From an uncultured bacterium (lineage in GTDB: Bacteria > Omnitrophota > Omnitrophia > Omnitrophales > Abzuiibacteriaceae): a stretch of 64,000 nucleotides of DNA. The notes beneath the pieces are model-generated. The model was not told the origin of the DNA. It saw only the letters and a list, made by a program, of their open reading frames with translations, and did not search any database. The DNA lies in contig CAYLXA010000001.1 of assembly GCA_964387845.1 (NCBI GenBank), positions 160,001 to 224,000 of the forward strand, in the 5' to 3' direction. Position numbers and translations under genes: made by a program. Below, in pieces: positions 1-54,946 of this stretch; position 1 is the stretch's first letter, and each line of letters begins with the position of its first letter.

Positions 1-442
1 AATCAATAACGCCGTATCGTTCGGGGTCTTTGACGTTATAAGCAAAAATCGTGGCGCCTTCTTTCTGCTGCGCGGCTTTCTGCAGCAATTTGCTCAAACC
101 CGGACCGAAGAAAATATTGTCGCCGAGCACAAGGCATACGCTGTCTTTTCCGATGAATTTCTCACCAACCAGAAAAGCATCCGCCAAGCCGCGCGGTTTT
201 TCTTGTTCCGCATACGTTAATTGAATGCCAAGATCTCTGCCGTTGCCTAAGAGTGTTTTAAAATGCGGAAGCGCTTCGGATGTGGAAATAATCAAAATAT
301 CCTTAATACCTGAAAGCATCAGGACCGATAGAGGGTAATACACCATCGGCTTGTTGTAAACCGGGAGAAGCTGTTTGCAGATTCCTTTGGTGATGGGATA
401 AAGCCGCGTTGCTCTACCTCCTGCAAGAATAATACCCTTCAT
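1..442 (-). CDS. rfbA: Glucose-1-phosphate thymidylyltransferase, 3'-truncated by window edge (N-terminal 147 aa present)
   Basis: Reverse-strand translation [46 protein letters not shown]...GDNIFFG closely matches RmlA/RfbA. ATG at 442 (minus). Confidence 0.93.
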
Positions 443-447
443 AAAAT

Positions 448-1380
448 CTATTCACTCTTACCAAACGGAAGTTTAAGCTTGTCTTTGAGTTCGCCCGCAG
501 CACCGGCCAAATCTTTGACAGCATCTTTCGCAGTGCTCGTCACGGCGCCCGCGGTTTCTTTTGCCGTTCCGCCGACAGCGCCTGCTGTTTTCTTAAGGCT
601 TTCAGGCGCCGAGCCAACCAATTCTTTCGCAGCTTTTGCTTGTTCACCGATCAAGGCCTGCCCCTTCAAAATCGCATCCGCCGCCACTTTTTGCGATGTG
701 GCCAGCGTATCGGCAACGGATGACTGTAGTGCGCCCAAATCAATGTCCGTGAGCGACGCAATGGTTGTATTCATGAGCGCTTTTGCGACAATCAAACTCA
801 CAACCGCAGCCGGGTTTTCTATGTTGGTATAAGATTCATTTAAATTTAATTTAAATTCCTTAACGGAAGGCGCATTAATCCGGGCAGTGTAGTCTTTATA
901 AACCACCTTCTCGACCCGAAGTAAAAGCTTGTCAATTTGGATCGCGGGCGCCTTTCCGGCTTCCTTTGGTTTTTCTGCAGCGGGCCCACCTTTTTTCTTA
1001 GCCTGAGGCGGGATTAATTTGTTGATATTCACTTCGCCGCTTTTATTTTTAATCACTACCAATTCTTTTAAATGGACCCGGATCTCCGGCAAATGCACCT
1101 TGCCTTGAAACAAAGGTTCAATTTGATAAGCAACAAAAAATTCGGGCAAATCAACCATTACCGGATCTTGAAATCCGTCCGGATTATGGAGCCGCAGATT
1201 TTTGATGCCAACCGAGGGGCTCGCGCCGACGCCGATATTTAAATCGGCAATGCTTAGTTTGACGCCCGTCACCAAATGAACGCCTGTTTCGATTGCGGCT
1301 TTGGCAATCAAATTACGGCCGATAAAAAGGCCGATCAAAATAATAAAAACAAAAAGGATAAATTTTAAAAAACTTTTCAT
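448..1380 (-). CDS. Membrane-anchored hypothetical protein with C-terminal Lys/Ala-rich 11-mer-like repeat tail
   Basis: ORF 448..1533, but the likely start is the internal [19 protein letters not shown] (signal-anchor) at 1380, with AGGAG 8 nt upstream. The longer start would overlap mscS by 140 nt. Tail reads ...[37 protein letters not shown]. Confidence 0.6.
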
Positions 1381-2364: not shown

Positions 2365-3444
2365 ATGGGTACAAAAGAGATTATTCTAAAAGAAGTTGAA
2401 TTGAAAGGGTCTGTCAAAACCGCGGATTTGGCCCGAAAAACCGGCATCTCCCGCCAGACCATTGCGCAGCACTTCCGGGACCTCATCAAAGACCGAAAAC
2501 TGATTAAACTGGGTTCTACGCACAACGCAAGTTACCTGCCCTACGTGCCTCAGGCGCCCGTTCCGCTCGCAACCGAAAAAAACGCCAAACAACACACCGC
2601 CACACTTCTCATCCACTGCCCCGACCAAAAAGGGATTGTGGCGGCGGTAACAAAGTTCCTGTTTCAATTCCGGGGAAATATTCTTTACCTGGACCAGCAT
2701 GTGGATTTCGAGAAGAAAGTTTTCTTTATGCGGGTTGAATGGGACCTGCGCGGCTTTCTGATTTCACGAAAAAATATCGGAAAACAATTCGACAGGACTG
2801 TCGGCCGGCATTTCCGCATGAAATGGCAGCTTTACTTTTCCGATGAAATCCCGCGGATGGCAATTTTCGTGTCGACACTGCCGCACTGCCTATACGATAT
2901 TCTCGCGCGCTGCCAATCGGGCGAATGGCGCGTAGAAGTTCCGGTCATCATCAGCAATCATGAATCGTTAAAACCTGTTGCACAGCAATTCGGCATCGAG
3001 TTTCACTATTTCCCCATTACGAAGGCCAATAAAAGCGAGCAGGAAAGGCGTGAAATTGAGCTGTTAAAAAAATTAAAAGTGGATTTTGTTGTGCTTGCCC
3101 GTTATATGCAGATCTTGAGCGATTCTTTCCTCCGTCAATTTCCGGAAAAGATCATCAATATCCATCACTCATTTCTGCCGGCCTTCCCAGGCTCCCGGCC
3201 ATATCATTCGGCTTACGGGCGCGGCGTTAAGATCATCGGCGCCACAAGCCATTATGTTACCGCCAAACTCGATGAAGGCCCGATCATTGAGCAAGACACG
3301 GTTCGCATCAGCCACAAAGACACAATCGATGATTTAATTAGAAAAGGAAGGGATTTGGAAAAACTTGTTTTGGCGCGTGCGGTTTGGCATCATATCCGCC
3401 GCACAATTTTAATCCACGAAAACCGGACGGTTAATTTCGCTTAA
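2365..3444 (+). CDS. purU: Formyltetrahydrofolate deformylase (PurU) with an extra N-terminal winged-helix/HTH domain
   Basis: ACT domain (LLIHCPDQKGIVAAVTKFLFQFRGNILYLDQH) plus formyltransferase core (NIHHSFLPAFPGSRPYHSAYGRGVKIIGATSHYVT). First ~65 aa reads DLARKTGISRQTIAQHFRDL, an HTH. ATG at 2365; an upstream TTG at 2347 is possible. Confidence 0.85.
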   Translation: MGTKEIILKEVELKGSVKTADLARKTGISRQTIAQHFRDLIKDRKLIKLGSTHNASYLPYVPQAPVPLATEKNAKQHTATLLIHCPDQKGIVAAVTKFLFQFRGNILYLDQHVDFEKKVFFMRVEWDLRGFLISRKNIGKQFDRTVGRHFRMKWQLYFSDEIPRMAIFVSTLPHCLYDILARCQSGEWRVEVPVIISNHESLKPVAQQFGIEFHYFPITKANKSEQERREIELLKKLKVDFVVLARYMQILSDSFLRQFPEKIINIHHSFLPAFPGSRPYHSAYGRGVKIIGATSHYVTAKLDEGPIIEQDTVRISHKDTIDDLIRKGRDLEKLVLARAVWHHIRRTILIHENRTVNFA

Positions 3445-3932: not shown

Positions 3933-6900
3933 TTAGGCTTTGATGATGAGTTCGTGCGCATTTTGGAATTCTGCTCTTAACTCGCTTGAAAACTTGACGA
4001 TATTGAACAATCCTCTGATATCGTCGGCAGAACTTTCATCATCAATAACGCCGCGGTTTTTCATAGCAAGCGCAATCCCCCGGTCCTCTTTTAAGCCAAG
4101 CGCCTGGATAAAACCAACCTGTAGCTTCTTTTTTAAATAATGCGCCGCCTGATCGGGATATTGAAACACTTTCATTCGTTCATCGGCTTGAAAAGAAACG
4201 GCCGCGGCTCCGTCCGAAACCACCGCGACTTCATAACCTTGCGCTTTATAGTAACGCACAAGAAGCGGTGTCACGGTGCCCGCTTCGCGCGTTAAAATAT
4301 CCATCAAAATTACGCCGCGCTTTAAATGGAGATCTTGATTCGAGTCGCCGCTGATTTCAAACGTTCGGTTTAAATAATTTCTAAGTTCCGGCGTTAAAAA
4401 CAACCCCGGATCCGCATCGATTTGCCGCGCGGCTTCTCGCACGCTTGATTCCATAGTTTCTATATGCATCTCGAGCCCGTCAAACGGGTTTAGATGATCA
4501 AATCTTAACTCGGACTTGGCGCCATCACCTTTAACCAAGTAAGTGTAAATTTTCTGAAATTCATGTTCATAGCTTTCGGTAAATTTTTCTTCTTTCTCGG
4601 CCACGCGGCGATAATATTCCGAAGCTTGTCCGGTAACATACTGCCACAAGGTAAAATTTGTCTGATTTTGTTTATTAAAATCAGCCAACTGCTCTGCGTC
4701 TATTTCACCTTGCGCCTCTCCCTGGTGGCGTAGAAAAATCGGTATCTCCGGCCCTAGAAAAACTTCGGGAAAAAGCGCGGCAATTTGCCTGACGATGCTT
4801 AGGAAATCTTGGGACGGATCATTGTCTAAATTCTCTGAAATATCCTGAAGAATTTCTCGGTAGGCTTCCAAACCGAAGGCGTCCACTGGAAAATCATTTT
4901 GCTTAAAAAACTCAGCCCCGTGCGAGGCCGCTGTCTTATTCGGAACAAACAAAAGGCCATTGATCAGCGCGGAACCGTACTCCAATATTTTCTGCCTATT
5001 TTGAACAGGATCTTTTAGAAATTCTTTTAATGAAGGCAAAAACCCTTTGATTAAAATGGGCATCAATTGAATATCCAGTTCATCTGTCCCGATACGGTGA
5101 TCATGCCTTAAGTGCGGGCCCAGGATTCCGAATAAAAGAGCTGCTCCTTGCGCGGATTTTTGCGCAAGCGCCGCAGCGTTATCAAGAAAGACTTGGTCAT
5201 TGTCAGCAAATGACAAAAGTTTTTTAAGCAGCAGGCCGTCAGGTTCGGGAATTACATCATTCAAACGGCCGTCTTCATGCCCCCGCAGTTCGGAACGGTT
5301 TTCAATGGTAATCAAAACCTCTTCCTGTGCGGGGTTTTTGGTTGGAATCACCCTGACCTTAAATTCAAGTGATTCTGAAGCATCGTTCAATACAAATGTC
5401 CCGTAATCGGAACCGGCGCGCTGCCGTTCGATGGCAACATCTTTTGCTATTAACTTCACCAATGTAAAAAAGTGAAGCGCATTTCCGGCAGGTTTGGCAG
5501 TGAAATGCCTGGCAGAAATCTTGCTGTCTGAATCTTTAGACACGATTACGGTAACAACAGCACCGTTACGAATCAACCGCACAGATTTTGCCTGCTTCAA
5601 TTTGAAAACGGGTTTCAGCACATAAGATTGAACCAATTTTGAATAAGGAAGCGGTGTTTCATGGTTGGATGCGATTGACAATAAAAATCGGCCTTGATCC
5701 CGGTTCATGATCCAGAGTGCAAATTGCGCGCCCTTAAGCTCCAACCGTTCCCTTTCGGTCATCGTGCGGCTTTGGGTCAAGCGCTTCATATCCAACTTAT
5801 CAAAGCGCTCCAAGAGCCCATGGAACTTTCCGGGGTCGAGCAGCTCATCCGCGTCAACCTCGGAAAGCACAAGAAGAGTCAGTAAGTGGCCAAGCTGTCT
5901 AAATAACGGGCTTTTATCTCTAAAGTCCTCGAAAAGATTCTTCGCATCTTCAAGCAGGCTGCGGACTTCATCATAGGCAAGGCCAGATGCTGTCAAATAT
6001 CGCATTTTGCCCACCGCGCGCAAAAATTGCCCCTCTTGATCCATGGTTAATCCGACTTTATTTTCGGTTTCTGGATCATCCGGATTGATAATTTCGATGG
6101 GGTCAAGGCCTTCGCGGAAATCTTCCTCTAAAAATTTCTTCAATTCATCCGAACGTTTTCCCATTTCGATTAAAAGCTGGGATAACGCCCTTAATTCGGA
6201 ACGCTGCCCTCCGGCAGAGCCGTTTTGTGCATTATTGCGCTTCTTATAATTTGACACTTCAATAGACAAATCATTGATTTCATTGGCTAACGCTTCAACT
6301 TTAAAAATAAGCTTTCGATTTGGATTTTTTGGATCGGCGAGAATGAACGAGCCGATTTGATCAACATTTCCCCGGTTAATATCGATCTGCTGCGTAAAAA
6401 ATTGCAGTAAGGTTAAAAAATAAAACGCGTCTTGCTTTTCTAATTTGAACTTTTCAGATTTTATGACGTCGCGCTGTGCGTCTGAATCCAGATAGTAAAT
6501 TTCGACTGTATTTGTCTTTTGAACACGTTTGATTTTAATGAAGCCAATATCATCCTCTTTAAATGCCGGGTCTATGATCATTTGCTTTAATAACTGGCCA
6601 ACCTGAAACTGCCTGATCGCCAAATGAATAAAGCGGCCTTGATACTGTCTCATGCCGGCCAACAAGTATTTTGCCGCTGCCGCGATCAGCTTGTCCATCG
6701 GGTCCAGCGGCTGTCCGTTCCGTTCGGAATAATGAAATCTCATAGCTAAGCTGACCAGTTCGTGAAATATGTCGGTTTGAAAATATGTGTTGAGCTTTTC
6801 GGGCGTTCTTGCTAATTCGGTTTGAATTGTTTCGAGCTCACTTCGAAAACCATCGGCTACACTAATGTAGTGATAAGTACCCGCCGCAGAAATAGCTTGT

Positions 6901-9900
6901 GTCAAAAGCTGGTCGAAGCGCCGGTTGTGAACCAGATAAAATAGCGGCGGATAGGCACCATGCTCCAAATCAACTTGGCCAACCACATAGTCAAAGAAAT
7001 CTTTGACTGCTTTTTTTGCATCATTGTTGCCGAGCCGCATCATCACACTGTCTTTTTGCTTGACTAGTCTCTGCGTCAACAATTCTTCAATTTCAAATAA
7101 GCGCTGGCCCATCTCGGCCAAGTCGATTTCCAGTTTGCTCCATCCGCTATTTCCGATATCGCCCGATTTGGTTCGGAGTTCGGATCTTTCCGCAGGTTGT
7201 TTTTGATTATCAAACTCGGCGGTCAATTTAAACGATCTAGCATGTTCGGCGTCGAATGCTTCGAGCATCGGGTCGGCGTATTCGAAAAGCCAGCTAAAAT
7301 CTTTTTCTGCCTCGGGAGTTTTAAAACCAAAGTCTTCTGTAAAAATAGAGAAATCAACCTCAGGCCGGCCGCTCAATAAAAATGTAAGACTAAGCGGATT
7401 TTCTATCTCACGATTACCGTTGATTTCGTCCAGCCATGCTTGAAATAATGCGGCTAGGCGTATTTTCCTTTTATCCAAACTGCCGTCCGGACGCATGATA
7501 TGCCTTAAATTCTTCAGTTCGTTTGCAACCGCTTCGCGCCGCTCTTCGTCTGAAAATGATTGAATATAATCATCAAAGTTGCCGGGTGGCCCGATCTCCT
7601 TCAGAACTGCTTCTGCCAATACTACGAATTGCTCATAATGAGGCTGGGTGGCATACACAACATAACGCCGAAACCAATCCTTCATTTTGGGATCTTGATA
7701 ATAATCAAGAAGCCTTTTCATCGAAGGATCCTTTTGAGCCGACTCATAAAATGTCTCCCCTTTAAGGATCATCTTCCTGTTCAGGTCTTGGTCGAATCGA
7801 TAGCTGCCGTCCGGCTGTATCGCCAAACTAATATTGTTGCGGTGAATCTGCCGATATTTTTTAAATTGCACTGCCCGGGGATTATTCGTTTTTTCGGGAT
7901 AATGAATGAATTTTGCCACATTAATAAAGTACCGAATATTCATCAGCCGGAATTTTCTGGGAAGCCAAGCTGTATAATCATAATCGATGGCAGCCAAGGC
8001 ACTGTTGGGTTCGTCCTTAGATTGCGGCGCCTTCATCAGAACAATTTCAAAGGGTTTCAGCAAAGACCGCCCGTTCAGAGTCACTTCATTGCCGATTGCC
8101 AAACGGGACCCTTTGCTAATCAAACTGATAAATTCCCGGATCAAATTGCGATCCTCTTCGGTTTCGGCATATTTCAGATCTTGATCCAGGATAAAGCGAA
8201 GTTCTTCCGCCAGTCTGTCCATTTTCTCCGAATTCCCCGGCGGAACCCGGAGCGCAAACTGATCAAGCTTGCTGAAGCCAATAGACAAATCGACTGGATC
8301 ATACGGAACTTGCGGTGCCGGATCTTCAAATAGGCGATATTGCAAATCCCGCTTAAACCACCGGACAACGGGGAAATAATAAAATAATGCGGCAATCATC
8401 GATAGCACAGACCCAAAAACCGAGGCCCAAACTATCCGCTTCTTCAGAATTTGCCGTTTTGCATGCTTAAGCCGCTTCTGGCGCTCAAGCAGATTATTCA
8501 AAGCTTGTTTAGCAAGTGAAACGATGTGATGATCGCTATCCTCCGGGCCGAATTCAAACTGAATAACTTGCCCGCGCTTTGTTTCAAGTGCCGCGTATCC
8601 GGATTTTCCATTCTCAGGCAAAAGCACAAACGGTTTTTCCCATGGCCCATGGAAAACAAACGGCTCTTCGTTCGGTAATCTGAGAATCAATTTCTCAATC
8701 TCCCCGGGCCGTTCGGCTTGGCGCCTTTCTTCATCCAATCGTTGTTCGTTATTCCGCCAATCCCTTTTTATTTGCTGAACTTTTCCTAACGCGTCCGCCC
8801 TTTTGGCAGCCGTGGTCTCATCATCATGGAGCACATTTTGGTATTCTGTGTGGCCGAACAGTTTTGTCAGCAAATGATCACGGGATTGAGCGGTCGGAAG
8901 GCCATAAACAACCTCCGCCACGTGAAGCACTCCGCTTTCAATTGCGCTCCGGAGCGAATTTAACTTTGATGGCGTAGCATCAAGCTCTTTTCCTCTCGCC
9001 GGAATTAGATGAAACGGCAAATGACTTTTCCCGGAATCTAAGAATAAACTGATAGATCGTAGTTTTTTTCCGTTTAATTCAATTTCTTTTTTAAAGTTAA
9101 TTTGAATAGTTGATGGCTTGCCAGAATGATCCACGATGATTCGAGTGTGGCTGGAAAAATCGTTCGCCACACCGATAATTGTGTCGGCTATTTCTTTTTC
9201 AGGAACGAGCGGCCGAAAACCTAAATGAGTCCATATTTGAATAATACGTGGATCACGACTTTCGCCTTCTAATTTTAGAACGCTTCCGTTCTTAGACGAT
9301 AATTGATTCTGTGCTATGAATTCGATTTTGCCGTGAAGTTTATGATTCAACCTCGTTGGGTCTATGGTTTCAAGCCGCACCACTTCAGTGCTTGCGCGAA
9401 GCTCTGATCGCGGCGTAGTTTGATTAGTTGCAATTCTGGTAAAGACGAGATAATGCCAATAGCGCCCTGATTTGTAAAAAGCCGGGATGGCGCGCGATCC
9501 TGTAGAACTTTGCCATTCTTCAGGATGAATAAATTCGCGAAATGCTTTTAATATGGAATCGCCCGCTCCATCAAAATCGAACTCTAGCTCGTCAAAGGGG
9601 TACTCAAAAGTAATTTGGCCGCCCTCCGGAATCCTGGCAATTAACTGCCGAAACCACTCTTGCGAGAGCGAATCGACGTAGCGGTCGATATTTCCAAAAC
9701 GGACATGACGATAAGCCGGCTCTTGAAATAACAAGGCGGGATCCCGGATATCAACCCGGCGGATTTCTATTTGGTCACCGAGACGTAAGAATTTTTTGGC
9801 TCGTTTCGAAAAAGCCTCCACGAAAAACGAGCGGTCTGAGAAAATAAAATGATCATCACCGCTGATTTGTTTAAAAAAGTTCACGGCGTTGGTTCCTGAA

Positions 9901-12900
9901 GCCAGATCCAAAACCGGCAGTCTTCTTAATTTTGGATCATTTGAGTTCAAATAAACCGGCACTTCGTCGTCAAAATGTTTCGCCGAAAATGCCATCACGG
10001 CTGCAAACTCGCCTAACTTCTGCAAAAATAATCTTGCTTCGGGTAAATTTTCAAGATAAGCACGCTCCGAAAATTGAATGACTCTCTCTAATTCATCGTA
10101 AATATATTCAAAATCAGAAAACATTGGAAGCGATCGCACAACTTCCGGCCAAAACGTATCAAAATTCAAATAGTAATGATATTGAAATATCATTTGAGCC
10201 AAATATCCGTTGGCTTGCCGAAGGATTCGGCCACGCAAATCTTTGTAATCCTCGATTCCGAACTTTTCTAAAAGCTCGGTGGGCCACGGCTTTGAAACTC
10301 TACGGCTGCTGATTTGATGAAAAACGTGCAAGCTCAAAAACCCGACGGTAGAAGCAACTACAACCGGCCACATCAAGCTACGAAGCTCAGAACGAATCCA
10401 TTTATCCGATAAGTCATGCTGGATTTCGCGGAACTGTTCGCGCCATTGAATCAGCTCGGCGTTTCGTTTGCGTGCATCATCCGCAATTGCTTGAAGCGGT
10501 TTTGGCACCATGCTTTGAACATAATATTGAATATCCAATTGAGCAAACCAGTTCCCAAAACGATATCTTTCACCATCCGGAATTTGACTCAGGTTAAAGT
10601 TTTCATGTTTTAATTTGGAAATAGCGAGCTGCCCTGCCAAGCGAGTCGATAAAGCTCCTGAAAAATAAAGCTGGAGCAACTTTGTTAAATGAAAAAAGTA
10701 AACAAAGTTAAGCCCATTGTTGCCAAATAAAACAGGGTCAAATGCAAACGCATCCTCTCCGCCTTTTTCAGGCCTAAAGTAGAGATCGATTAAGTTCGAA
10801 TTAAAAGAAGCATCTTTGACGTGGGTTATTCCGATTTCCCGCCATATACGCACATCCAGATCACCAATTCCCAACGCGTGGCGTAAACTTCCAAATAAAT
10901 AAACTCGCGGATATAAATCCGATTCAGAATAGCTTTCTTTAGCGCGTACAAAATCGAGTGCCTTTTTCAACTCATCAACCAAAAGAATTGAATTTTGAAA
11001 ATGTTCTAAATTAGTATAAGGATGCGTCAGGTGAAAATACAGCCGATGAAGCATATTGTGGACAAAACTCACGCCATTGATTTCTTCAAAAAGCCGGAGA
11101 TCTGCGGGAAGCACTCTTAGGCGTGGAGACTTTTCTTTGTTCCAACTGCGGATCAGCTGTTCAATCTCAGAATTGATTTGGATGTAGTTTTCTGATGCGC
11201 CCGATTCGAGATCTGGTTTGGCTAGGTCTTTTGATAACTGGAATAACTGATCCTCCATCGACATAATTTTCATGAAAAAATCAAAATCATCATCTGTTAA
11301 AGATCTATGGATGCTTTTCTGAATTTGCTTCAGAAAATAAATCGTATTGTCGAGGAGAATTTTGTGCGCTGCATCCTGCGGTATGTCAAAATGATCGAAC
11401 ATTTTTTGCGCCATTTTTTCAGCGGTTGGATAGAAAAGCGGCTGACCCAATTCATTCATTCTGAGTTCAGAACGGCGAGCAGTCTTCAAGAAACCTGATG
11501 CACCTGCCAACACTTTGCCTGCTTCAGGTAAACTTAATCTTCGAAGGAGCAATGGTTTCACGTTCTTCGCGGCTTTTCGTCTAGCGACTAAATACAAGAC
11601 ACCTTCAAATTCGGTTGCCGCCTCTTTTAAAGTCAGTTCTCGAAGCGGTCCGTCAATACCGTACTTTTCCCAACTCGCGCTTCGGCTTAAGGGGAGGCCA
11701 AAAACCTGAACGTCGATGTTTCGCCGTCTGAAGAGATTGACTAATTCGGCATTTGTCTTGACGCCGCGCGGATTAAGGCTGGATTTGGTTGCGTAAAGCA
11801 GTACGGAATTTTGAACAACGACCGAAGCGCCCGGGCTCATATTTGCCAAAACTTCTCCCGCAACTTTTTGAGCATCAACGTAATTCAATAAATTTGAAAT
11901 GACAATGGTGTCAAATTGAGAATATAAATGCGGCGGACTTAGCTGAGAAGAAGGCTTGCCCTCACGAAGAACCAAATCGATTGCATGGCGATCCTCCGGG
12001 CTCATACTCTCGATCCGCTCAACATCCGCCCGCACAGTCAAAACGTTACCCTTCTGCTCAATATCCTTGGGTGGGCGGAGAGCAAGCGCCACGATTTTTT
12101 TCTTTGGATACATTACAGCTGACAAAGGATTGCCCCCATCCCCCAATTCTAAAATTCGATCCCCTAAACCGCCGGATCGTTCTAACGCTGAGAAAACAGT
12201 TGCTAAATCGCCTCGAAATGTGACATCTTCGTCCCTATAAAAATTCCGCCATAGAAATTCACGGCCGAGATTGGTCAATTCCAGCTCAGAGGTCTTGCCC
12301 ACCACACTGCCTTGAAACACGGACGACAAAGACACAGCCGCTCGATTGCCGTCCTGCATCTGTAAACTTAAATTTCCCTCAAAAGAAGAAGCGTGGATGG
12401 TTATTTTGATTGTTTTTTTATTCTCATCGTCAAATTCCAGAAAATAACTTTCGCTCAAACTTCCTCCGGTTGCGATTTTTTTCGAAAAAGGTTTTTCCTT
12501 GGTATAAAAAGAAATGTTTTTTTGAATCAGGCGGACAAATTTCTGTACTTCTTCCGGCACATCACCGATGGTTTTGAGATCACCTGTTTTAAAAGTTCCC
12601 TCGGCCGAGCCAACAAAAACGAAACCGGTTTCATACTGCGTAAAAAACTGAAATCGCGAGGCCTTCTCTGCCTGAGTTTCATTGGGAACTACTCGAATGT
12701 TGTACCAATCGCCGCTGACAGGATGATAAACCAATAATAAAAATCCATGGCCATTTAATTCGTCTGCAAAAAATAAGTCGCCAATTCTTGGGTTCTGTGG
12801 ATCGGGCTTTCTTCTGCTTTCAAAACTGCCCAAATAGCCGGCGGCCTGCAGGCGCGCTATCAGACGAATGGCGGCAGGGCTAAATGTTTCGCTTTGTTCG

Positions 12901-13286
12901 CGCAATCTTTCATCGGATAGGGCCCTAAAAATAAATTGACGCTTGTCGGTTCTTCGCCGGTAACGCGCAATAGAAAAGTCTTTTAAAAATTCATCAGCCG
13001 TGAGCGCTTTGCCGTTATATTTTTTAAGAAATCTGGAAAGTCTTTCAACGTCTTTCTTTAAAATGGAAATCCGCGAAGCCTGGTTTGCCAGCGCGCTTGT
13101 CCGCAATTCAGAACGGACAATAGCCGGATTTAAGTTCCGGAAGGAACGGCTCTTTAAATAACTTGCGGCTTTTTGAAAGAAGGCGGTGGCAGACGGAATA
13201 TCACTGTACGCAATGGTGCTTGTGAAGGTAAAACTCAGCAGGGTTGTGAGGGCAATGGTTTTGAATAAAGCGGACTTTAATTTCAC
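3933..13286 (-). CDS. Giant secreted multidomain protein (3117 aa) with recurrent RSELR pentapeptide motif, two methyltransferase-like motif-I segments, a nucleotidyltransferase-like GS...DLD motif and one internal TM helix
   Basis: Uninterrupted 9354-nt ORF with a GTG start and GGGAGCG upstream. N-terminal Sec-type signal peptide MKLKSALFKTIALTTLLSFTFTSTIAYS. Motifs ILELGDGGNPLS...DTIVISNLLNYVD, YLFGSLRHALGIGDLDVRI, VLDLASGTNAVNF. TM segment IVWASVFGSVLSMIAALFYYFPVV near aa ~1620. Confidence 0.8.
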   Translation of the reverse strand: MKLKSALFKTIALTTLLSFTFTSTIAYSDIPSATAFFQKAASYLKSRSFRNLNPAIVRSELRTSALANQASRISILKKDVERLSRFLKKYNGKALTADEFLKDFSIARYRRRTDKRQFIFRALSDERLREQSETFSPAAIRLIARLQAAGYLGSFESRRKPDPQNPRIGDLFFADELNGHGFLLLVYHPVSGDWYNIRVVPNETQAEKASRFQFFTQYETGFVFVGSAEGTFKTGDLKTIGDVPEEVQKFVRLIQKNISFYTKEKPFSKKIATGGSLSESYFLEFDDENKKTIKITIHASSFEGNLSLQMQDGNRAAVSLSSVFQGSVVGKTSELELTNLGREFLWRNFYRDEDVTFRGDLATVFSALERSGGLGDRILELGDGGNPLSAVMYPKKKIVALALRPPKDIEQKGNVLTVRADVERIESMSPEDRHAIDLVLREGKPSSQLSPPHLYSQFDTIVISNLLNYVDAQKVAGEVLANMSPGASVVVQNSVLLYATKSSLNPRGVKTNAELVNLFRRRNIDVQVFGLPLSRSASWEKYGIDGPLRELTLKEAATEFEGVLYLVARRKAAKNVKPLLLRRLSLPEAGKVLAGASGFLKTARRSELRMNELGQPLFYPTAEKMAQKMFDHFDIPQDAAHKILLDNTIYFLKQIQKSIHRSLTDDDFDFFMKIMSMEDQLFQLSKDLAKPDLESGASENYIQINSEIEQLIRSWNKEKSPRLRVLPADLRLFEEINGVSFVHNMLHRLYFHLTHPYTNLEHFQNSILLVDELKKALDFVRAKESYSESDLYPRVYLFGSLRHALGIGDLDVRIWREIGITHVKDASFNSNLIDLYFRPEKGGEDAFAFDPVLFGNNGLNFVYFFHLTKLLQLYFSGALSTRLAGQLAISKLKHENFNLSQIPDGERYRFGNWFAQLDIQYYVQSMVPKPLQAIADDARKRNAELIQWREQFREIQHDLSDKWIRSELRSLMWPVVVASTVGFLSLHVFHQISSRRVSKPWPTELLEKFGIEDYKDLRGRILRQANGYLAQMIFQYHYYLNFDTFWPEVVRSLPMFSDFEYIYDELERVIQFSERAYLENLPEARLFLQKLGEFAAVMAFSAKHFDDEVPVYLNSNDPKLRRLPVLDLASGTNAVNFFKQISGDDHFIFSDRSFFVEAFSKRAKKFLRLGDQIEIRRVDIRDPALLFQEPAYRHVRFGNIDRYVDSLSQEWFRQLIARIPEGGQITFEYPFDELEFDFDGAGDSILKAFREFIHPEEWQSSTGSRAIPAFYKSGRYWHYLVFTRIATNQTTPRSELRASTEVVRLETIDPTRLNHKLHGKIEFIAQNQLSSKNGSVLKLEGESRDPRIIQIWTHLGFRPLVPEKEIADTIIGVANDFSSHTRIIVDHSGKPSTIQINFKKEIELNGKKLRSISLFLDSGKSHLPFHLIPARGKELDATPSKLNSLRSAIESGVLHVAEVVYGLPTAQSRDHLLTKLFGHTEYQNVLHDDETTAAKRADALGKVQQIKRDWRNNEQRLDEERRQAERPGEIEKLILRLPNEEPFVFHGPWEKPFVLLPENGKSGYAALETKRGQVIQFEFGPEDSDHHIVSLAKQALNNLLERQKRLKHAKRQILKKRIVWASVFGSVLSMIAALFYYFPVVRWFKRDLQYRLFEDPAPQVPYDPVDLSIGFSKLDQFALRVPPGNSEKMDRLAEELRFILDQDLKYAETEEDRNLIREFISLISKGSRLAIGNEVTLNGRSLLKPFEIVLMKAPQSKDEPNSALAAIDYDYTAWLPRKFRLMNIRYFINVAKFIHYPEKTNNPRAVQFKKYRQIHRNNISLAIQPDGSYRFDQDLNRKMILKGETFYESAQKDPSMKRLLDYYQDPKMKDWFRRYVVYATQPHYEQFVVLAEAVLKEIGPPGNFDDYIQSFSDEERREAVANELKNLRHIMRPDGSLDKRKIRLAALFQAWLDEINGNREIENPLSLTFLLSGRPEVDFSIFTEDFGFKTPEAEKDFSWLFEYADPMLEAFDAEHARSFKLTAEFDNQKQPAERSELRTKSGDIGNSGWSKLEIDLAEMGQRLFEIEELLTQRLVKQKDSVMMRLGNNDAKKAVKDFFDYVVGQVDLEHGAYPPLFYLVHNRRFDQLLTQAISAAGTYHYISVADGFRSELETIQTELARTPEKLNTYFQTDIFHELVSLAMRFHYSERNGQPLDPMDKLIAAAAKYLLAGMRQYQGRFIHLAIRQFQVGQLLKQMIIDPAFKEDDIGFIKIKRVQKTNTVEIYYLDSDAQRDVIKSEKFKLEKQDAFYFLTLLQFFTQQIDINRGNVDQIGSFILADPKNPNRKLIFKVEALANEINDLSIEVSNYKKRNNAQNGSAGGQRSELRALSQLLIEMGKRSDELKKFLEEDFREGLDPIEIINPDDPETENKVGLTMDQEGQFLRAVGKMRYLTASGLAYDEVRSLLEDAKNLFEDFRDKSPLFRQLGHLLTLLVLSEVDADELLDPGKFHGLLERFDKLDMKRLTQSRTMTERERLELKGAQFALWIMNRDQGRFLLSIASNHETPLPYSKLVQSYVLKPVFKLKQAKSVRLIRNGAVVTVIVSKDSDSKISARHFTAKPAGNALHFFTLVKLIAKDVAIERQRAGSDYGTFVLNDASESLEFKVRVIPTKNPAQEEVLITIENRSELRGHEDGRLNDVIPEPDGLLLKKLLSFADNDQVFLDNAAALAQKSAQGAALLFGILGPHLRHDHRIGTDELDIQLMPILIKGFLPSLKEFLKDPVQNRQKILEYGSALINGLLFVPNKTAASHGAEFFKQNDFPVDAFGLEAYREILQDISENLDNDPSQDFLSIVRQIAALFPEVFLGPEIPIFLRHQGEAQGEIDAEQLADFNKQNQTNFTLWQYVTGQASEYYRRVAEKEEKFTESYEHEFQKIYTYLVKGDGAKSELRFDHLNPFDGLEMHIETMESSVREAARQIDADPGLFLTPELRNYLNRTFEISGDSNQDLHLKRGVILMDILTREAGTVTPLLVRYYKAQGYEVAVVSDGAAAVSFQADERMKVFQYPDQAAHYLKKKLQVGFIQALGLKEDRGIALAMKNRGVIDDESSADDIRGLFNIVKFSSELRAEFQNAHELIIKA

Positions 13287-13476: not shown

Positions 13477-14547
13477 ATGGACCATACGCATCATCAAAAA
13501 ACAAACGGATCTGAATGCTGCCATCATTCGGAGCAGGCTCGCCGGAAAGCGCCGTGGTATCACAATAAGCTGACAATCATTTTGCTAGGCACTGCCCTGC
13601 TTTATGGCGTGTCTTTTATTTTTCAGCCTCTTCTTGCATTTCGCGAGTCATTTGACAGTTATTTGAAAATCATCGCCATTCCGATGCTCATTGGGCTTCT
13701 CTTGGGCGGCGTGATCGATTACTACATCCCGCAGGAATATGTCTCAAAATATTTAGCACGCACCACGAAACGCACTGTTTTTTACGCAACAGGCCTCGGA
13801 TTTCTGATGAGCGCCTGCAGCCACGGTATTTTGGCACTTTCCATGGAACTTCATAAAAAAGGCGCATCAGGCCCTGCGGTTGTGAGCTTTCTTTTAGCAA
13901 GCCCGTGGGCCAATTTGCCGGTCACTTTTCTTTTGATCGGATTTTTCGGGTGGAAAGGGTTTTTGATTATCTTGGCCGCATTTCTAGTTGCGATTACCAC
14001 AGGTCTCGCGCTTCAACTTTTAGACAGTCGGGGCCTGATTGAAAAGAACCGGCATACTTCTGCGGTGAACTCGGAATTTTCAATTTTGAAAGATATGAAA
14101 CGGAGATTTTCCGAATATGAGTGGACTTTCTCCAATTTATCCAAGGACCTGCGCGGCATCGGAAAAGGCTCTTGGGAGCTTTCGGAAATGATTTTATGGT
14201 GGATTTTAATCGGACTGATTCTCGCGAGCCTGACATCTGCGTTTGTGCCGCACGGAATTTTCCAGAAATATTTCGGGCCGACCTTGCTTGGCTTAGTGGC
14301 TACTTTGCTTTTGGCCACTATTTTTGAAGTTTGCTCGGAAGGCACATCGCCTTTGGCGTTTGAAATTTATAAACAAACGGGCGCATTCGGCAACGCGTTT
14401 GTTTTCTTAATGGGCGGCGTGGTAACGGATTACACCGAAATCGGGCTTTTGTGGATTAATCTTGGAAAACGAACTGCGCTTTGGACACTGGCGTTATCAA
14501 TTCCGCAGGTGTTTTTGATTGGCTGGGCGCTCAATATACTTTTCTAG
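13477..14547 (+). CDS. Predicted permease (DUF318/ArsP-like family) with N-terminal His/Cys-rich patch
   Basis: 356 aa, multi-TM. N-terminus MDHTHHQKTNGSECCHHSEQ. Transcribed divergently from the giant gene across a 190-bp AT-rich spacer. Confidence 0.55.
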   Translation: MDHTHHQKTNGSECCHHSEQARRKAPWYHNKLTIILLGTALLYGVSFIFQPLLAFRESFDSYLKIIAIPMLIGLLLGGVIDYYIPQEYVSKYLARTTKRTVFYATGLGFLMSACSHGILALSMELHKKGASGPAVVSFLLASPWANLPVTFLLIGFFGWKGFLIILAAFLVAITTGLALQLLDSRGLIEKNRHTSAVNSEFSILKDMKRRFSEYEWTFSNLSKDLRGIGKGSWELSEMILWWILIGLILASLTSAFVPHGIFQKYFGPTLLGLVATLLLATIFEVCSEGTSPLAFEIYKQTGAFGNAFVFLMGGVVTDYTEIGLLWINLGKRTALWTLALSIPQVFLIGWALNILF

Positions 14548-15416
14548 CCGATCCGGAGCCGGACGGTTTCCTGTTTACCGTCTTTCTCGATCACAATGCT
14601 GGTGGGCTTAATTTCAATGATCTTCGTATGGCCCACTTGATCGCCGGGGCGCCAGATTTTTCCATTAATCAAAACAACCGGGTCGGAAGCATCATACATA
14701 ATGCCTTCCAGCACTAAATCTTCATGAGGCGCAGATTCAGCCCATGTCTTGAAAGGATTACGGCCGAATTCCCGGAACCGTGTCTTGCCTGCTTTTCGCA
14801 ATTCAACCGACAATTGGCCTTGATCCATATAAATCAGCTTTTCGTCATTCTCCGGAACAAAAACGGATACCGTCAGTGGCCCCCGGAGAAAATCGCTTTC
14901 GGGATTAGGCGGTGAAAACCGGAATTCGTCAACCCGCATGACGGCTTGATCCAACTTTCCCAGTTGTGAAAGAAATAGCGCGACATCCTGATAACTACCG
15001 CGGATCGTCATATCGATCGGAATCCGCGATAAATTCGGAAGCAGTTTTTTCTCGCTTTCATTTAAATCGGTTTTTGCCCTGGGTGAAATAGAATCAAATT
15101 GCACATTAAAGCGTTTGCCGGTGCTTGTGATTTGTTCGATGTAGGTCGCAACATTATTTCCTGACGTAAACTTAGCGAGCTCTTCTTTTAATTCTGCATT
15201 CGCGGCGGGTTCATTCAGCCGGTCCAATTGCCAGACTTCCTCGCGGTAATGATCCAGCTGGCGGCGGGTCTCGTAATAACCACTTTTTGCCTTGTCCACG
15301 CGAAGCGCCATAACACCGACTAGTGCAAGCATCGCGCACCCGATGACGCCGATAGCGCTCATTGGAATATGCTTGTGCCCGATTTTGATATCAATTTTCA
15401 TGTCTGAAAACTTCAA
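14544..15416 (-). CDS. Pilus assembly protein, PilO-like N-terminal part with PilP/GspC-like C-terminal beta domain
   Basis: Single TM, a coiled coil, then IPIDMTIRGSYQDVALFLSQLGKL (PilO-like) and a C-terminal VVLINGKIWRPGDQVGHTKIIEIKPTSIVIEKDGKQETVRL. Overlaps the upstream gene by 4 nt. Confidence 0.5.
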   Translation of the reverse strand: MKFSDMKIDIKIGHKHIPMSAIGVIGCAMLALVGVMALRVDKAKSGYYETRRQLDHYREEVWQLDRLNEPAANAELKEELAKFTSGNNVATYIEQITSTGKRFNVQFDSISPRAKTDLNESEKKLLPNLSRIPIDMTIRGSYQDVALFLSQLGKLDQAVMRVDEFRFSPPNPESDFLRGPLTVSVFVPENDEKLIYMDQGQLSVELRKAGKTRFREFGRNPFKTWAESAPHEDLVLEGIMYDASDPVVLINGKIWRPGDQVGHTKIIEIKPTSIVIEKDGKQETVRLRIG

Positions 15417-17020
15417 ATCGCCTCTCCCAATATTGAAAAAGTGACTGATTTTTCATTCCGGTCAGACTCGGCCAAAGTAGGTTTTCGAAAAACCGGGCCT
15501 TCAATCTGCTCCAGTGATTTCGAGAGGAGCCCCTGCTGACTGTCGACCGGGAAACTGCCTTTAATGATAAACAAGCCTCTCTGATAAGAGAATTCGGATA
15601 AAGTCACTTCTCTCGGAAATGCTTGAGATAACTCCTGAAAAACATCCTCCCAGTAAGGTTCTGAGGAAAAAACTCCGGAGATCAGTGTTTTCACCTGCAT
15701 GCTTTTCTGACGGATTGCTTTCACTTTTTGCGCTTCTTCATATCCCGGCTGCAGGTTCGCAATTTGCAAATGTAAAGACTTTGTCTTATCTGAGATGGTA
15801 ATGGATTGCCAGGCCAGACTTGAAAACAGTAAAACAAAAGCGGTCAAAGCGGCAATGGCTGTTTGCCGGTACGAAAAGAATTTAACCGCGGAGTTCCCCA
15901 TCTTGAGCAAATCGGGAAGCCACGGCTTTTTTAAATTATGCCTATCTAAAATAATGCTGATAGGACGGTAAAAACCGTTCAAATCGTCTTCACGGAGTTT
16001 GTCGGAAATTTCAATGTCCTGGAAAAAATAAACGGGCTTAACGGGGACTTGGAGAGTTTGTTCCACAAATTGAATAAACCCCTTAAGTCGGCTTCCGCCG
16101 CCTGTGAGAAAGATACGTTCAATTCCTTCCCCGTGTTCCTGGGAGTAAAAATCAAAAGAACGCCGGAGTTCACCGGTTAATTTTTGTAAAACGGGCCGGA
16201 TGAGCGGATATAATTTTGAAGCTTCGATTTTGCCGGCAATCAAATTTTCATTTTCGGCACCCAAAAATACGCTCTCATGCCGTGCCCGATCGGCCTCTTC
16301 CATGGTTAGCGCAATGCGTCCTTTATCAGTCACGATAGGCTGCGTGAGCGCCTGGCTCAATAATTCGCCGCCGAAAGAAATTTTGCGCAGAAAATCAAGC
16401 CGGCCGCCCGCATAAAGCGCGATTTCCGCAATTTTATGGCCAATATCAACCACTGTTACCAAATGCCGCGTCGACTGTGCGAAGGCATACGGCAAATGAT
16501 CGACTTCGAAAGCTGCATTCGCCAATTCAAAAGAACTGCAGCCGGATTCGCGGAGAATGCCGGCCAATGTCTCATAAACCTTGACGGGAAGAGCTGTTAC
16601 TAAAACTGTCTGTCTAAGGTCCTTTTTTTGACCCGGCATAGGTACGATTTTGTAATCTAGTTTCGCTTCTTCGATGGCAAACGGGAGTTCATCTTTTACT
16701 TTCCATTTAATTGTGTCGACCAAGTCTTTTTGAGATATGTTCGGAACGACAAAAGACCCGAAATAAGTTTGGAGGCTGTTGGTTACTAAAAAAACGGTAT
16801 GGCGGCTCAAATCAAACCCGGACAAAGCTTTCGCGGCTGCTTGCTTCAGCGTTTCCCTGGCCTGAGCAACATCCTCGTAAGGCGGAACCGGAATGCTCCG
16901 TGCCTCCAGAAGATGGAACCGCTTTGCGGCCGTTTTTATCTGGACAATTTTGACAGAGGAAGAAGCGAACTCGATTGCCAAGAAGAAGCGTTCGCGGTTT
17001 TCGTTGGGCCAATTCAGCAT
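15413..17020 (-). CDS. pilM: Type IV pilus assembly PilM (actin-like ATPase) fused to a PilN-like membrane segment
   Basis: 535 aa. N-terminal ~350 aa is PilM-like (actin/FtsA fold). It is followed by the TM helix AIAALTAFVLLFSSLAWQSITI and a PilN-like periplasmic domain. Confidence 0.65.
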   Translation of the reverse strand: MLNWPNENRERFFLAIEFASSSVKIVQIKTAAKRFHLLEARSIPVPPYEDVAQARETLKQAAAKALSGFDLSRHTVFLVTNSLQTYFGSFVVPNISQKDLVDTIKWKVKDELPFAIEEAKLDYKIVPMPGQKKDLRQTVLVTALPVKVYETLAGILRESGCSSFELANAAFEVDHLPYAFAQSTRHLVTVVDIGHKIAEIALYAGGRLDFLRKISFGGELLSQALTQPIVTDKGRIALTMEEADRARHESVFLGAENENLIAGKIEASKLYPLIRPVLQKLTGELRRSFDFYSQEHGEGIERIFLTGGGSRLKGFIQFVEQTLQVPVKPVYFFQDIEISDKLREDDLNGFYRPISIILDRHNLKKPWLPDLLKMGNSAVKFFSYRQTAIAALTAFVLLFSSLAWQSITISDKTKSLHLQIANLQPGYEEAQKVKAIRQKSMQVKTLISGVFSSEPYWEDVFQELSQAFPREVTLSEFSYQRGLFIIKGSFPVDSQQGLLSKSLEQIEGPVFRKPTLAESDRNEKSVTFSILGEAI

Positions 17021-17027
17021 GATGATT

Positions 17028-17546
17028 TTAACTGGAAAAAGTGCCTGTTCCGTTGGTTATAAAAATATCATCGTCATTTTGGCCCGTTAACTTTCCATTA
17101 TTATCAATACCGGTAATATCCGCCGCGCCGTCTGGGCCATATGAAAATGCAACGTAATATTTACCGTTTCCGCTGACGGAATAACTATACTCCGCATTTG
17201 CGGTTCGGAATGGATCATACAGAACTTGCCTCAGAACACGCGGGCTGTCACTCGCTAAATCACTACTTTGCCAATCCGATCCCGTCGGATAGGTGCTGGA
17301 ATGATTTAAATAATAAGCGTTGACGGCCGTCTGGATTGCTCTTAAATCACCTTTGGCAGTTTCAATGTTTTTATGCTCGCTCATCCCGCGCATCCGGATC
17401 AGTGAAATTCCGAGAATAATCACGACAAGCGCCAAAACAAAAATCATTTCGAGGACCGAAAAACCTTTCTTTGTGAATCGATCCCCGACACACACTGCGC
17501 GATACACGAAATCAAACCTCCGCCCAGGAATTTGCTTTTTTGGCAT
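17028..17546 (-). CDS. Prepilin-type N-terminal cleavage/methylation domain protein (minor pseudopilin); start uncertain
   Basis: KKGFSVLEMIFVLALVVIILGISL matches the class III signal peptide (G-F-S-x-L-E). The ORF extends to 17660, but the real start is probably near or downstream of the ATG at 17546. Confidence 0.6.
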   Translation of the reverse strand: MPKKQIPGRRFDFVYRAVCVGDRFTKKGFSVLEMIFVLALVVIILGISLIRMRGMSEHKNIETAKGDLRAIQTAVNAYYLNHSSTYPTGSDWQSSDLASDSPRVLRQVLYDPFRTANAEYSYSVSGNGKYYVAFSYGPDGAADITGIDNNGKLTGQNDDDIFITNGTGTFSS

Positions 17547-18744
17547 AGGTGTAAGTGGTAGTCGTCGTAAAGCCCGCCGGCAAACTAACGGGCAAGTAAC
17601 TTGAATTGTAAGTAATGGCTGCTTGATTAATGATGTTATCGCTTTGAAGCTCATTGGCAACTACGCTTCCGTGAACCACGGCATCATCCTGCACATTGGC
17701 GTTATCCGTAAAAATAATTCCCTCAAATGTTGCTGAATTCAAAATTTTGACTTGTTGATTGGTTTCGGGCGCCATCAAAACCGAAACAACATCAGCGCTG
17801 TCCTTCACAACCACATTGTTTTGGCTGTAAACCAGGCCGCCGCCCTGAACGGTAGTTGTATCTTGAATGGTAATGGTTTTTGCCGAAATCAAATTGACCT
17901 GCGAGCCAATTCCTGCGCTATTTTTAACATCAACCGCTTTGGTTGCCACCAAGTTCCCGGGCCCGGTAACCGTGGCATTGTCTTTGATCGTAACGCTTTT
18001 GTAATAGACGGTTTGCCCGGATAAATTTAAATTAGACGTTCCCGAAAGCGTTAGGTTTGAAGCGGCGTTGGCTTCGGCTTGCACAATGGCGTTGTCGTAA
18101 GTTGTCTTTGTAAAGGAAGGCATGCTGGGCGCAGGACTCGGATAACTCGGCGCCTGGGTATAAGTTCCGCCGCCCGTGACCGAATCGGCATAAACAAGGC
18201 CATTAATGACTTGTGAATTATTTCTTACGATGACAGAATCGGTACCGGCGGTTGGGTTGTAATAGACATTGCCCGATACAACAACGGTATGCGCATTCGT
18301 ATTTCCGACTTTAAGCGTATGATTGCCGCTCGGATTAGTTCCGACAAAAACCGCGTAAGAAAATGCGCTTGGAAAATTAACGGTGGTTGTTACCGTTTCG
18401 GTTTGAGTTAACTGCCTTGATTGACTATTATAAGTACCGGTCGAGTTAATAATGACATCGTCAACCGGCCGGGACAAATCAACCGAATAGGAGCCGCCGG
18501 CAAAACTATTATTCGAGAAACTGGAAATCCCGCCTATACTTAATGTGATGTCACCGTTTTTAAGCCGGTTCACGGCATCCGCAATGCCTGCTTCGGCCAT
18601 CCAAAACGCTTTTGCATCATTGGCATGCACCGCGATGCCGCGCATATCCGTTGTCAGGCTCACAATCAGCCCGCCCACAACCGCGGACAAAACAATCATA
18701 ATGACAATAGACAAAAGAAGAACAAACCCGTTTTTTTTACGCAT
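17512..18744 (-). CDS. PilX-like minor pilin N-terminal domain protein with large Thr/Ser/Asn-rich beta-rich C-terminal domain (possible tip adhesin)
   Basis: MRKKNGFVLLLSIVIMIVLSAVVGGLIVSLTTDMRG...AFWMAEAGIADAVNRL (PilX N-terminal-like), then ~300 aa of repetitive T/S/N/V-rich sequence. Confidence 0.5.
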   Translation of the reverse strand: MRKKNGFVLLLSIVIMIVLSAVVGGLIVSLTTDMRGIAVHANDAKAFWMAEAGIADAVNRLKNGDITLSIGGISSFSNNSFAGGSYSVDLSRPVDDVIINSTGTYNSQSRQLTQTETVTTTVNFPSAFSYAVFVGTNPSGNHTLKVGNTNAHTVVVSGNVYYNPTAGTDSVIVRNNSQVINGLVYADSVTGGGTYTQAPSYPSPAPSMPSFTKTTYDNAIVQAEANAASNLTLSGTSNLNLSGQTVYYKSVTIKDNATVTGPGNLVATKAVDVKNSAGIGSQVNLISAKTITIQDTTTVQGGGLVYSQNNVVVKDSADVVSVLMAPETNQQVKILNSATFEGIIFTDNANVQDDAVVHGSVVANELQSDNIINQAAITYNSSYLPVSLPAGFTTTTTYTYAKKANSWAEV

Positions 18745-19246: not shown

Positions 19247-19248
19247 GA

Positions 19249-19659: not shown

Positions 19660-19678
19660 TCCATTGCGATGAATCTAA

Positions 19679-20152: not shown

Positions 20153-20175
20153 GATGAAACTCCTCCTTCGTTTGT

Positions 20176-21384: not shown

Positions 21385-21390
21385 TGCTTA

Positions 21391-54436: not shown

Positions 54437-54443
54437 TCAACCG

Positions 54444-54791: not shown

Positions 54792-54946
54792 GAAAGTCTC
54801 CTATTTTATCTGCAAAAGTAAGCCGGTCATGGTATCGGGCCGATCAAAAATATTGGGCGAATATCGCATGAATTCGCAGGGCTTTCAACTGCTTTCCCGC
54901 GCCGCTAATTTTTTGAAAACTTCTCGTGCATGAATGCTCAAGATAG

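Follow-up and report, generated by a model that had tools for sequence, protein, structure and literature searches.

We have studied a giant gene found in a stretch of 64,000 nucleotides (nt) from an uncultured bacterium of the Omnitrophota, positions 160,001 to 224,000 of contig CAYLXA010000001.1 (assembly GCA_964387845.1). We will call this whole stretch the window, and all coordinates given without a locus name refer to it. The gene is an open reading frame (ORF) of 9354 nt in positions 3933..13286 of the minus strand. It has a GTG start and codes for a modular protein of 3117 amino acids (aa). Its peculiarity is a pentapeptide, RSELR, which is present in seven exact copies together with three variants, RSELE, KSELR and SSELR; the original prediction had described both the ORF and these ten sites, and we confirm them. 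The protein starts with a putative Sec signal peptide (aa 1–28, MKLKSALFKTIALTTLLSFTFTSTIAYS, 13203..13286 (-)), which was judged from the sequence without a predictor. Its end is plausibly found at ..IAYS, aa 28, and comparable N-termini are present in most of the relatives of the protein; we infer that the giant protein is exported. Two hydrophobic segments are probably transmembrane: aa 971–989 (10320..10376 (-)), directly after RSELR 965, with a Kyte-Doolittle 19-mer mean of 1.75, and aa 1618–1636 (8379..8435 (-)), with a mean of 1.95. There is not a single Cys in the 3117 residues, while the composition of the other ORFs of the window would predict about 19 (P ~6e-9). The GC content in the third codon position is slightly below that of the other ORFs. 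The protein has no match in Pfam, NCBIfam, PADLOC, PHROGs or the PDB sequence library.

The copies of the motif are distributed from one end of the protein to the other, all of them coded in the minus strand. Copy 1 (aa 58–62, 13101..13115) is found 30 aa past the signal peptide. It is followed by copy 2 (aa 605–609, 11460..11474), copy 3 (aa 965–969, 10380..10394), which lies just ahead of the hydrophobic segment 971–989, and copy 4 (aa 1293–1297, 9396..9410). Copies 5 (aa 2034–2038, 7173..7187) and 6 (aa 2362–2366, 6189..6203) open two paralogous modules, while copy 7 (aa 2664–2668, 5283..5297) is placed 14 aa ahead of a conserved domain, which we will call GPHLR. As for the variants, RSELE is found at aa 2148–2152 (6831..6845), KSELR at aa 2924–2928 (4503..4517), 5 aa past the end of the GPHLR domain, and SSELR at aa 3100–3104 (3975..3989). 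The latter is followed by a 13-aa tail, AEFQNAHELIIKA (3936–3974), which ends in Ala. All these positions had been predicted within 2 residues or a few bases, including the distances of 30 aa from the plausible signal-peptide end to the first copy and of 13 aa from the last copy to the stop. In a six-frame translation of the whole 64-kb window the peptides RSELR, KSELR and RSELK are confined to the giant ORF. A single-sequence AlphaFold model of aa 1251–2450 is unreliable, with a pLDDT of 35.6. In this model copy 4 is in a predicted coil, copy 5 in a 33-residue coil between helices and copy 6 at the start of a helix after a 10-residue coil, while RSELE 2148 is placed within a helix. This variant is a doubtful boundary mark and, going by this model, perhaps a copy without function.

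The abundance of RSELR is far beyond chance, as had been claimed: the seven exact copies compare with 0.008 expected from the composition of the protein (Poisson P ~5e-19), and in 1000 shuffles no 5-mer appeared more than 3 times. Variants with one mismatch are also in excess, 3 versus 0.5 expected (P ~0.015). The choice of codons differs among all ten 15-nt sites. This excludes gene conversion, and a signal at the level of DNA or RNA was rejected for the same reason. A C-terminal sorting signal (LPXTG, PEP-CTERM and similar) was also rejected: such signals consist of one motif at the C-terminus, then a transmembrane helix and a basic tail, while here the motif is found ten times along the protein and the 13-aa tail is not a transmembrane helix. 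The sequences which flank the copies are not conserved. The seven exact copies are followed by T, M, S, A, T, A and G, so that the small residue which had been noticed after the motif is as stated in these copies, but the observation does not extend to the variant copies nor to the motifs of the relatives.

The segments between motif copies are mostly unrelated. No matches were found among them with BLASTP, but a Smith-Waterman comparison against shuffles gave z = 10 for segments 2034–2361 and 2362–2663; every other pair has z < 2. Module A (aa 2039–2361, 6204..7172 (-)) and module B (aa 2367–2663, 5298..6188 (-)) are therefore distant paralogues. The claim that there is no extended similarity around the motif stands for all pairs of modules except this one. 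With a single paralogous pair, duplication accounts for at most one copy of RSELR. Moreover the pentapeptide is identical at the start of both paralogues, while the modules themselves have diverged past detection by BLASTP, which is evidence of selection on the motif. Both observations, the different codons and the single distant pair, support the claim that RSELR is kept at the peptide level and not by recent duplication of DNA. Motifs suggestive of other functions were noticed by eye: sequences resembling motif I of SAM methyltransferases, one near aa 380 and one near aa 1125, and a G-S...D-x-D of the nucleotidyltransferase kind near aa 800. They have no support from a phmmer search of the PDB.

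Relatives of the protein were found in an exhaustive HMMER search with aa 2034–3117 as a query against 1.84 billion cluster representatives. It yielded 20 other proteins, all of them remote. Nineteen align solely to aa ~2678–2923, which is the stretch between RSELR 2664 and KSELR 2924, with E-values from 1e-4 to 1e-21. The remaining one, P0002, aligns to aa 2936–3117, after KSELR 2924. A local profile outlines a domain of about 242 residues in the first group, and the giant protein scores 297 bits with it. This is the all-alpha GPHLR domain, aa 2678–2919 (4530..5255 (-)), which is delimited by profile, alignment and AlphaFold. It has a core FG..GPHLR and an invariant pattern G-x-H-x-R, D-x-x-D, Y, G, which is present in the giant protein as G2723, H2725, R2727, D2735, D2738, Y2809 and G2886. 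An AlphaFold model of aa 2664–2930, built with a 20-sequence alignment, is all-alpha with pLDDT 83.4 and pTM 0.85. Its first seven residues (RSELRGH) and its last five (within KSELRFD) lack secondary structure, with a pLDDT below 50, so that both copies of the motif sit in linkers at the ends of the domain. Thus, in the place where the model is good enough to decide it, the motif does not fall in a folded core, a possibility raised in the original prediction.

No model of Pfam or NCBIfam matched this domain, either in the relatives tested or in the giant protein, and no fold in the PDB matched its structure. The top matches, which are not significant, are helical solenoids which bind peptides: ARM, HEAT, importin, 14-3-3 and designed peptide binders. 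The domain also has conserved His, Asp and Ser residues, again without a fold match. Profile and alignment place the giant protein in a family so far undescribed, whose defining feature is the all-alpha GPHLR domain of about 240 aa. Other searches added little to it. In a word-index search the full protein matched solely itself, and the same search with its N-terminal third (964 aa) or with the domain alignment found nothing, not even the giant protein; since the method misses the giant itself, its negative results for the GPHLR family are uninformative. When genome, viral and metagenome contigs were scanned with the entire protein or close alignments, nothing was found either, apart from the loci of the AGLEE type which we describe below.

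RSELR is absent from the relatives that were found. However each of them carries its own over-represented short peptide. In about eleven proteins it is G[LMVA]EE, mostly as AGLEE, AGMEE or AGAEE; one of these proteins comes from a metagenome-assembled genome of an uncultured Planctomycetia, and metagenome contigs yielded further examples. In two proteins from groundwater metagenomes it is GFG[ATV], with 9 copies in 3748 aa and 15 copies in 7822 aa. The most frequent 4-mer beats every shuffle in the giant protein (P0001) and in P0004, P0020, P0003 and P0018, while in P0007, P0011 and P0016 the 4-mer alone does not exceed the shuffles. The position of these peptides is conserved: in 15 of the 17 domain instances of motif-bearing proteins the protein's own motif, be it AGLEE/AGMEE/AGAEE, GFGA or KSELR, is found 1–23 aa past the end of the GPHLR domain. 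At this end the sequence reads ..VYAFLLERGTVAGLEE in the AGLEE type, ..VYDFLRSGFGAEE in the GFGA type and ..IYTYLVKGDGAKSELR in the giant protein. On the other side of the domain the preceding copy is 86–114 aa before it in the relatives versus 14 aa in the giant. The relatives thus lack RSELR but have a different and equally uniform motif at the corresponding boundary, which strengthens the reading of RSELR as a mark of boundaries between modules, as it had been proposed. This reading is supported where it is testable, namely around the GPHLR domain, which is bounded by RSELR 2664 and KSELR 2924, and before the last module; it may not extend to RSELE 2148, which the unreliable model places inside a helix. 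Where it can be tested, the data also support a conserved position of the junction, while the peptide which marks it changes between lineages and is uniform within a protein. A further observation concerns the GFGA protein P0020, which has the sequence SGFGAEE after its GPHLR domain (aa 1866–1875), as is likewise the case in a second giant protein (L004 43439–43468) to which we will return. GFGA thus overlaps the GAEE variant of AG[LMVA]EE, and this overlap may be a trace of one motif having replaced another.

The ends of the proteins are also marked in many members of the family. The first copy of the motif is found about 10–50 residues past the signal peptide in most motif-bearing relatives. 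In seven members of the AG[LMV]EE type a copy precedes the C-terminus by about 9 residues, a distance which is 13 residues in the giant, while no C-terminal copy is present in the two GFG proteins and in several others. The giant protein fits the layout of the family by its signal-peptide-like start, the absence of Cys and its C-terminal Ala. The last residue is Ala in 15 of 22 family proteins, with tails which include IIKA, LRAA, LKAA, TAA, QAA, VAA and GA; the corresponding binomial probability, P ~1e-10, is overstated because the sequences are related. Such an ending may be recognised as a C-terminal tail, for instance by a protease of the tail-specific or PDZ kind. Cys is scarce in all members, P0020, P0007 and P0004 among them: there is, for instance, 1 in 7822 aa and there are 2 in 3748 aa.

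The last module of the giant protein, together with the tail (aa 2936–3117, 3936..4481 (-)), is homologous to P0002, a protein of 188 aa, with 36% identity and E = 2e-25. P0002 is coded in positions 55–621 (+) of a 746-bp contig (L002) and starts near an AGLEA sequence. An in-frame stop is found upstream, so that it is a stand-alone gene, which indicates that modules can function alone. Inside this module there is a conserved element G-L-[EK]-E-D/R, which appears as ALGLKEDRG in the giant (GLKED at aa 3064–3068, 4083–4097 (-)), as GIGLEEDRG in P0002 (aa 135–139) and as FVGLEER in proteins of the AGLEE type. It resembles the AGLEE motif which is found at the junctions of the relatives. The C-terminal modules of the giant and of the AGLEE-type proteins look alike by eye, but hhalign does not support this similarity. 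No other module of the giant protein matched the conserved N-terminal module of the GFGA proteins or the kinase-like module of the AGLEE proteins.

One of the genomes with the GFGA motif offers a different kind of information. The 7822-aa protein is found in a 43-kb locus (L004), where we looked for other ORFs with [ASG]GFG[ATV]. There is a single one, the start of a second giant gene (43196–43469 (+)), 10 kb downstream of the 7822-aa gene. The gene call gives it 2103 aa, with matches to SNF2, helicase and methyltransferase. It has SGFGA about 80 residues from its start, and its signal peptide is similar to the one found in the 7822-aa protein. In the loci of other relatives which were examined the motif is restricted to the family gene. 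The presence of SGFGA in the second giant, and in no further ORF of the 43-kb locus, indicates a reader which acts in trans and is specific for each genome.

How might such a system work? It is very probable that some factor which evolves together with the motif reads it. The reading which we favour, although we give it somewhat less than an even chance, is that the copies of RSELR are proteolytic processing sites of an exported polyprotein. RSELR would be a lineage-specific recognition peptide in the linkers between the modules of a precursor which carries an N-terminal Sec-type signal peptide and has no Cys. A putative endopeptidase, dedicated and sequence-specific, would cut at or beside each RSELR. 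In this way it would release an N-terminal piece of about 30 aa, about eight modules (aa 63–604, 610–964, 970–1292, 1298–2033, 2039–2361, 2367–2663, 2669–2923 and 2929–3099) and the 13-aa C-terminal tail. A hydrophobic anchor of their own would remain in two of these modules. Each lineage of the family would have its own boundary peptide: RSELR here, AG[LMV]EE in the Planctomycetia type and GFG[ATV] in the two groundwater giants. In that case co-evolution of the reader with its sites is required, as between a viral protease and the sites of its polyprotein. A broader proposal, which we put forward tentatively, is that in some bacteria one or several giant exported proteins have a genome-specific peptide punctuation, such as RSELR, AGLEE or GFGA, at every junction and near both ends, read by a co-evolving machine which is possibly a new protease and conceivably the GPHLR domain itself.

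Several observations weigh against processing by a protease. Searches of the giant protein with Pfam, NCBIfam, PADLOC, PHROGs and the PDB sequence library revealed no peptidase domain, nor did those of the relatives with Pfam and NCBIfam; for most of the giant no homologue is detectable at all. As for a co-conserved peptidase, which the original prediction had suggested to look for, no peptidase gene is conserved next to the members of the family. The three types of motif, basic, acidic and Gly/Phe, are chemically unrelated by their sequence, a large jump in specificity for a single lineage of proteases. If segments 971–989 and 1618–1636 are real transmembrane helices, RSELR 1293 is placed across the membrane from the other copies, which is awkward for a single periplasmic protease. 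Neither the site 30 aa after the signal peptide nor the one 13 aa before the C-terminus is obviously required for the release of modules. As boundaries, copies 58, 605 and 965 are presumed, for 1293, 2034 and 2362 the support comes from one model with a pLDDT of 36, and a crude test of linker composition upstream of the RSELR copies is not significant (p = 0.09), although it is in the relatives. Finally a docking motif would explain all the supporting evidence equally well, with the exception of the stand-alone last module.

Docking without cleavage is indeed the alternative to be considered most carefully, although we find it rather unlikely. The peptide in the linkers would bind a lineage-specific reader and the intact multivalent protein would form a network or coat, or it would recruit a partner for each module; the part of the reader might be played by an unlinked protein or by the GPHLR domain. 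The positional evidence (linkers, termini, the same boundary in the relatives, a second giant which shares the motif) fits equally well with docking, and copies at the extreme ends of the protein are more natural for docking than for the release of modules. The absence of any protease in the library searches of the giant and its relatives points in the same direction, as does the resemblance, although not significant, of the GPHLR domain to peptide-binding solenoids. On the other hand the invariant H, R, D, D and Y of this domain are identical in proteins of the RSELR, AGLEE and GFGA types, so that this site of the domain cannot determine specificity, and no reader was found. Five residues are also short for specific binding without a context, and the flanks are unconserved. 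The stand-alone homologue of the last module suggests in addition that the modules work separately.

Other explanations are much less probable. The motif might be a structural element of linkers without any reader, such as a favoured helix start or linker end (for example a Ser N-cap), spread by gene conversion or convergence. In favour of it, RSELR 2362 follows a coil and occupies the N-terminal end of a predicted helix, and helix-prone sequence comes after several of the copies, all of it in the low-confidence model. We consider it improbable: loose capping preferences cannot yield seven identical pentapeptides, gene conversion is excluded by the different codons, chemically unrelated peptides occupy the same place in the relatives, and an unrelated second giant in one genome uses the same peptide. 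A little less probable still is the modification of a side chain, for instance of the Ser of the pentapeptide by phosphorylation or glycosylation, as a mark of each module. A Ser flanked by Arg does resemble the sites of basophilic kinases, and the copies are in accessible linkers in the GPHLR-domain model, where this could be assessed. However none of the residues Ser, Thr, Tyr, Lys, Arg and Cys is shared between RSELR and AGLEE, AGMEE or GFGA, and a modification gives no reason for the placement of the motif at module boundaries. The lack of a modifiable side chain common to the different motifs favours recognition of the backbone, either for cleavage or for binding, over a shared side-chain modification. 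Chance, an assembly artefact or a recent internal duplication can practically be discarded. One adjacent pair of modules is certainly paralogous, but beyond this distant pair no similarity is detectable between modules, all the codons differ and the probability by composition is the one given above, with no shuffle reaching more than 3 copies of any 5-mer. The identical protein is moreover recorded twice, at NCBI and in a Logan assembly, and an open frame of 9.35 kb at 44% GC cannot be non-coding. A polyvalent protein of a phage or conjugative element was also considered and rejected. Such proteins are coded by mobile elements, contain domains of phages or of conjugation and lack a signal peptide; here there is no PHROG match, the locus is chromosomal, surrounded by biosynthetic genes and the operon of the type II secretion kind, the protein has a putative signal peptide and no relative was found in viral contigs.

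If processing does take place, the closest functional analogues may be viral polyproteins with co-evolving proteases and the multi-effector toxins of the MARTX type. In viruses the protease and its short conserved sites evolve together, as is the case for picornavirus 3C, flavivirus NS3 and potyvirus NIa. The giant protein would resemble them as a long product split at a nearly identical linker peptide, which varies by lineage while the junctions are kept. It differs from them in that its gene belongs to a bacterial chromosome and that it has a putative signal peptide and no recognisable protease domain, and its cleavage is a proposal; besides, in one related genome the same motif is found in a separate second giant protein. 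In MARTX and large clostridial toxins an internal cysteine protease domain releases the effectors by cutting after Leu in the linkers. They share with our protein, if it is exported as predicted, the character of a bacterial giant with unrelated enzyme-like modules joined by linkers which would contain recognition sites. However the giant has no RTX (GGxGxD) repeats, no C80 cysteine protease domain (there is no Pfam match) and no Cys at all; its putative export signal is of the Sec type instead of a C-terminal type I secretion signal, and a full pentapeptide is conserved instead of a single Leu.

Two other systems have features in common with it. Precursors of ribosomally synthesized and post-translationally modified peptides (RiPPs) of the cyanobactin type contain repeated cores flanked by protease sites, such as G(L/V)E(A/P)S for PatA. 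They also have repeated cargo units flanked by a short recognition sequence, and the AG[LV]EE of the relatives resembles the PatA site, perhaps by coincidence. Their cargo is formed by peptides of 6–20 aa, whereas here we find folded modules of 170–740 aa and no RiPP enzymes nearby. Short docking motifs are found in the Rubisco-binding motif of pyrenoid proteins and in the repeats of carboxysome scaffold proteins. The pyrenoid motif is also short, it is placed at termini and between domains and it is present in several proteins of one organism, where a single partner reads it, but RSELR is more uniform, an exact pentapeptide, and has no known partner.

In its genomic setting the giant protein is closest to the giant proteins of Omnitrophota, which are also found beside genes of the type II secretion kind. 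They have been described by West-Roberts et al., who suspected their cleavage into several products and stated that the cleavage points were unknown (10.1101/2023.11.21.568195). They exceed 30,000 aa and have many transmembrane segments, an SecA-like DEAD helicase and C39 or S8 peptidase domains (10.1101/2023.11.21.568195; also 10.64898/2026.06.07.730766). Our protein is also very long, mostly unannotated, with a putative signal peptide and probable transmembrane segments, and it adjoins genes which resemble those of type II secretion or pili. It differs from the Archaeovorin and Dockerin types by its size of 3117 aa, its two hydrophobic segments and the absence of their domains, none of which was found. 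Boundary motifs are mentioned in neither of these two papers (10.1101/2023.11.21.568195; 10.64898/2026.06.07.730766), nor did we find a description of them in the literature on motifs, bacterial polyproteins and giant proteins.

With concrete candidate sites it becomes possible to test whether a bacterial giant works as a single chain or is split into pieces; in the paper on the largest of them it was noted that the missing cleavage points blocked further analysis (10.1101/2023.11.21.568195). A simple computational rule may also be derived: one can divide a giant protein at its over-represented k-mer and then predict the structure of each module. The family and its domain are new, without a Pfam or NCBIfam model and without a match to any solved fold. 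Should cleavage be true, it would represent a case of co-evolution of a protease and its sites in a cellular genome, so far best known from viruses, and a possible source of proteases with differing five-residue specificities. If the peptides are indeed a punctuation, the modules of bacterial giants which cannot otherwise be annotated would be readable from their sequence, and a processing enzyme with a switchable specificity of five residues would be a new biochemical system.

The giant gene is surrounded by genes of known type. On one flank we find PurU, MscS and AsmA-like genes, on the other one an ArsP-type permease, followed by an operon similar to those of type II secretion and type IV pili (PilO, PilM, pseudopilins, GspF and GspE, 14544–23088 (-)). 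This operon lies beyond the 5' end of the giant gene and is separated from it by the permease gene alone, which is divergently transcribed. The 3748-aa GFGA relative also has T2SS-C and secretin genes, 6–9 kb upstream (locus L011, 947–3489). Farther out in the window there are housekeeping genes, including RuvAB, FtsH and TilS.

A few other features of the window and its organism should be mentioned. The same strain is present in runs SRR15237813 and SRR15237816. GspE, GspF and an NAD(P)H-hydrate dehydratase from the window are singletons at 90% identity in a collection of 15 billion proteins, in which the organism has no close relatives. In a region of about 1.6 kb (54122–55742) there is no ORF of at least 150 aa on either strand and no match to tRNA or Rfam. 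A secreted serine protease with a trypsin fold is coded in positions 38988–39761 (+): it has 257 aa, a signal peptide and an H/D/S triad, with no PDZ domain. Although it is unlinked to the giant gene, at a distance of 25 kb, it is a possible candidate for cutting after Arg. Finally, the region 56260–59583 (-) codes for a protein of 1107 aa which is formed almost wholly by repeats of the HEAT/PBS-lyase type, in 15 matched stretches.

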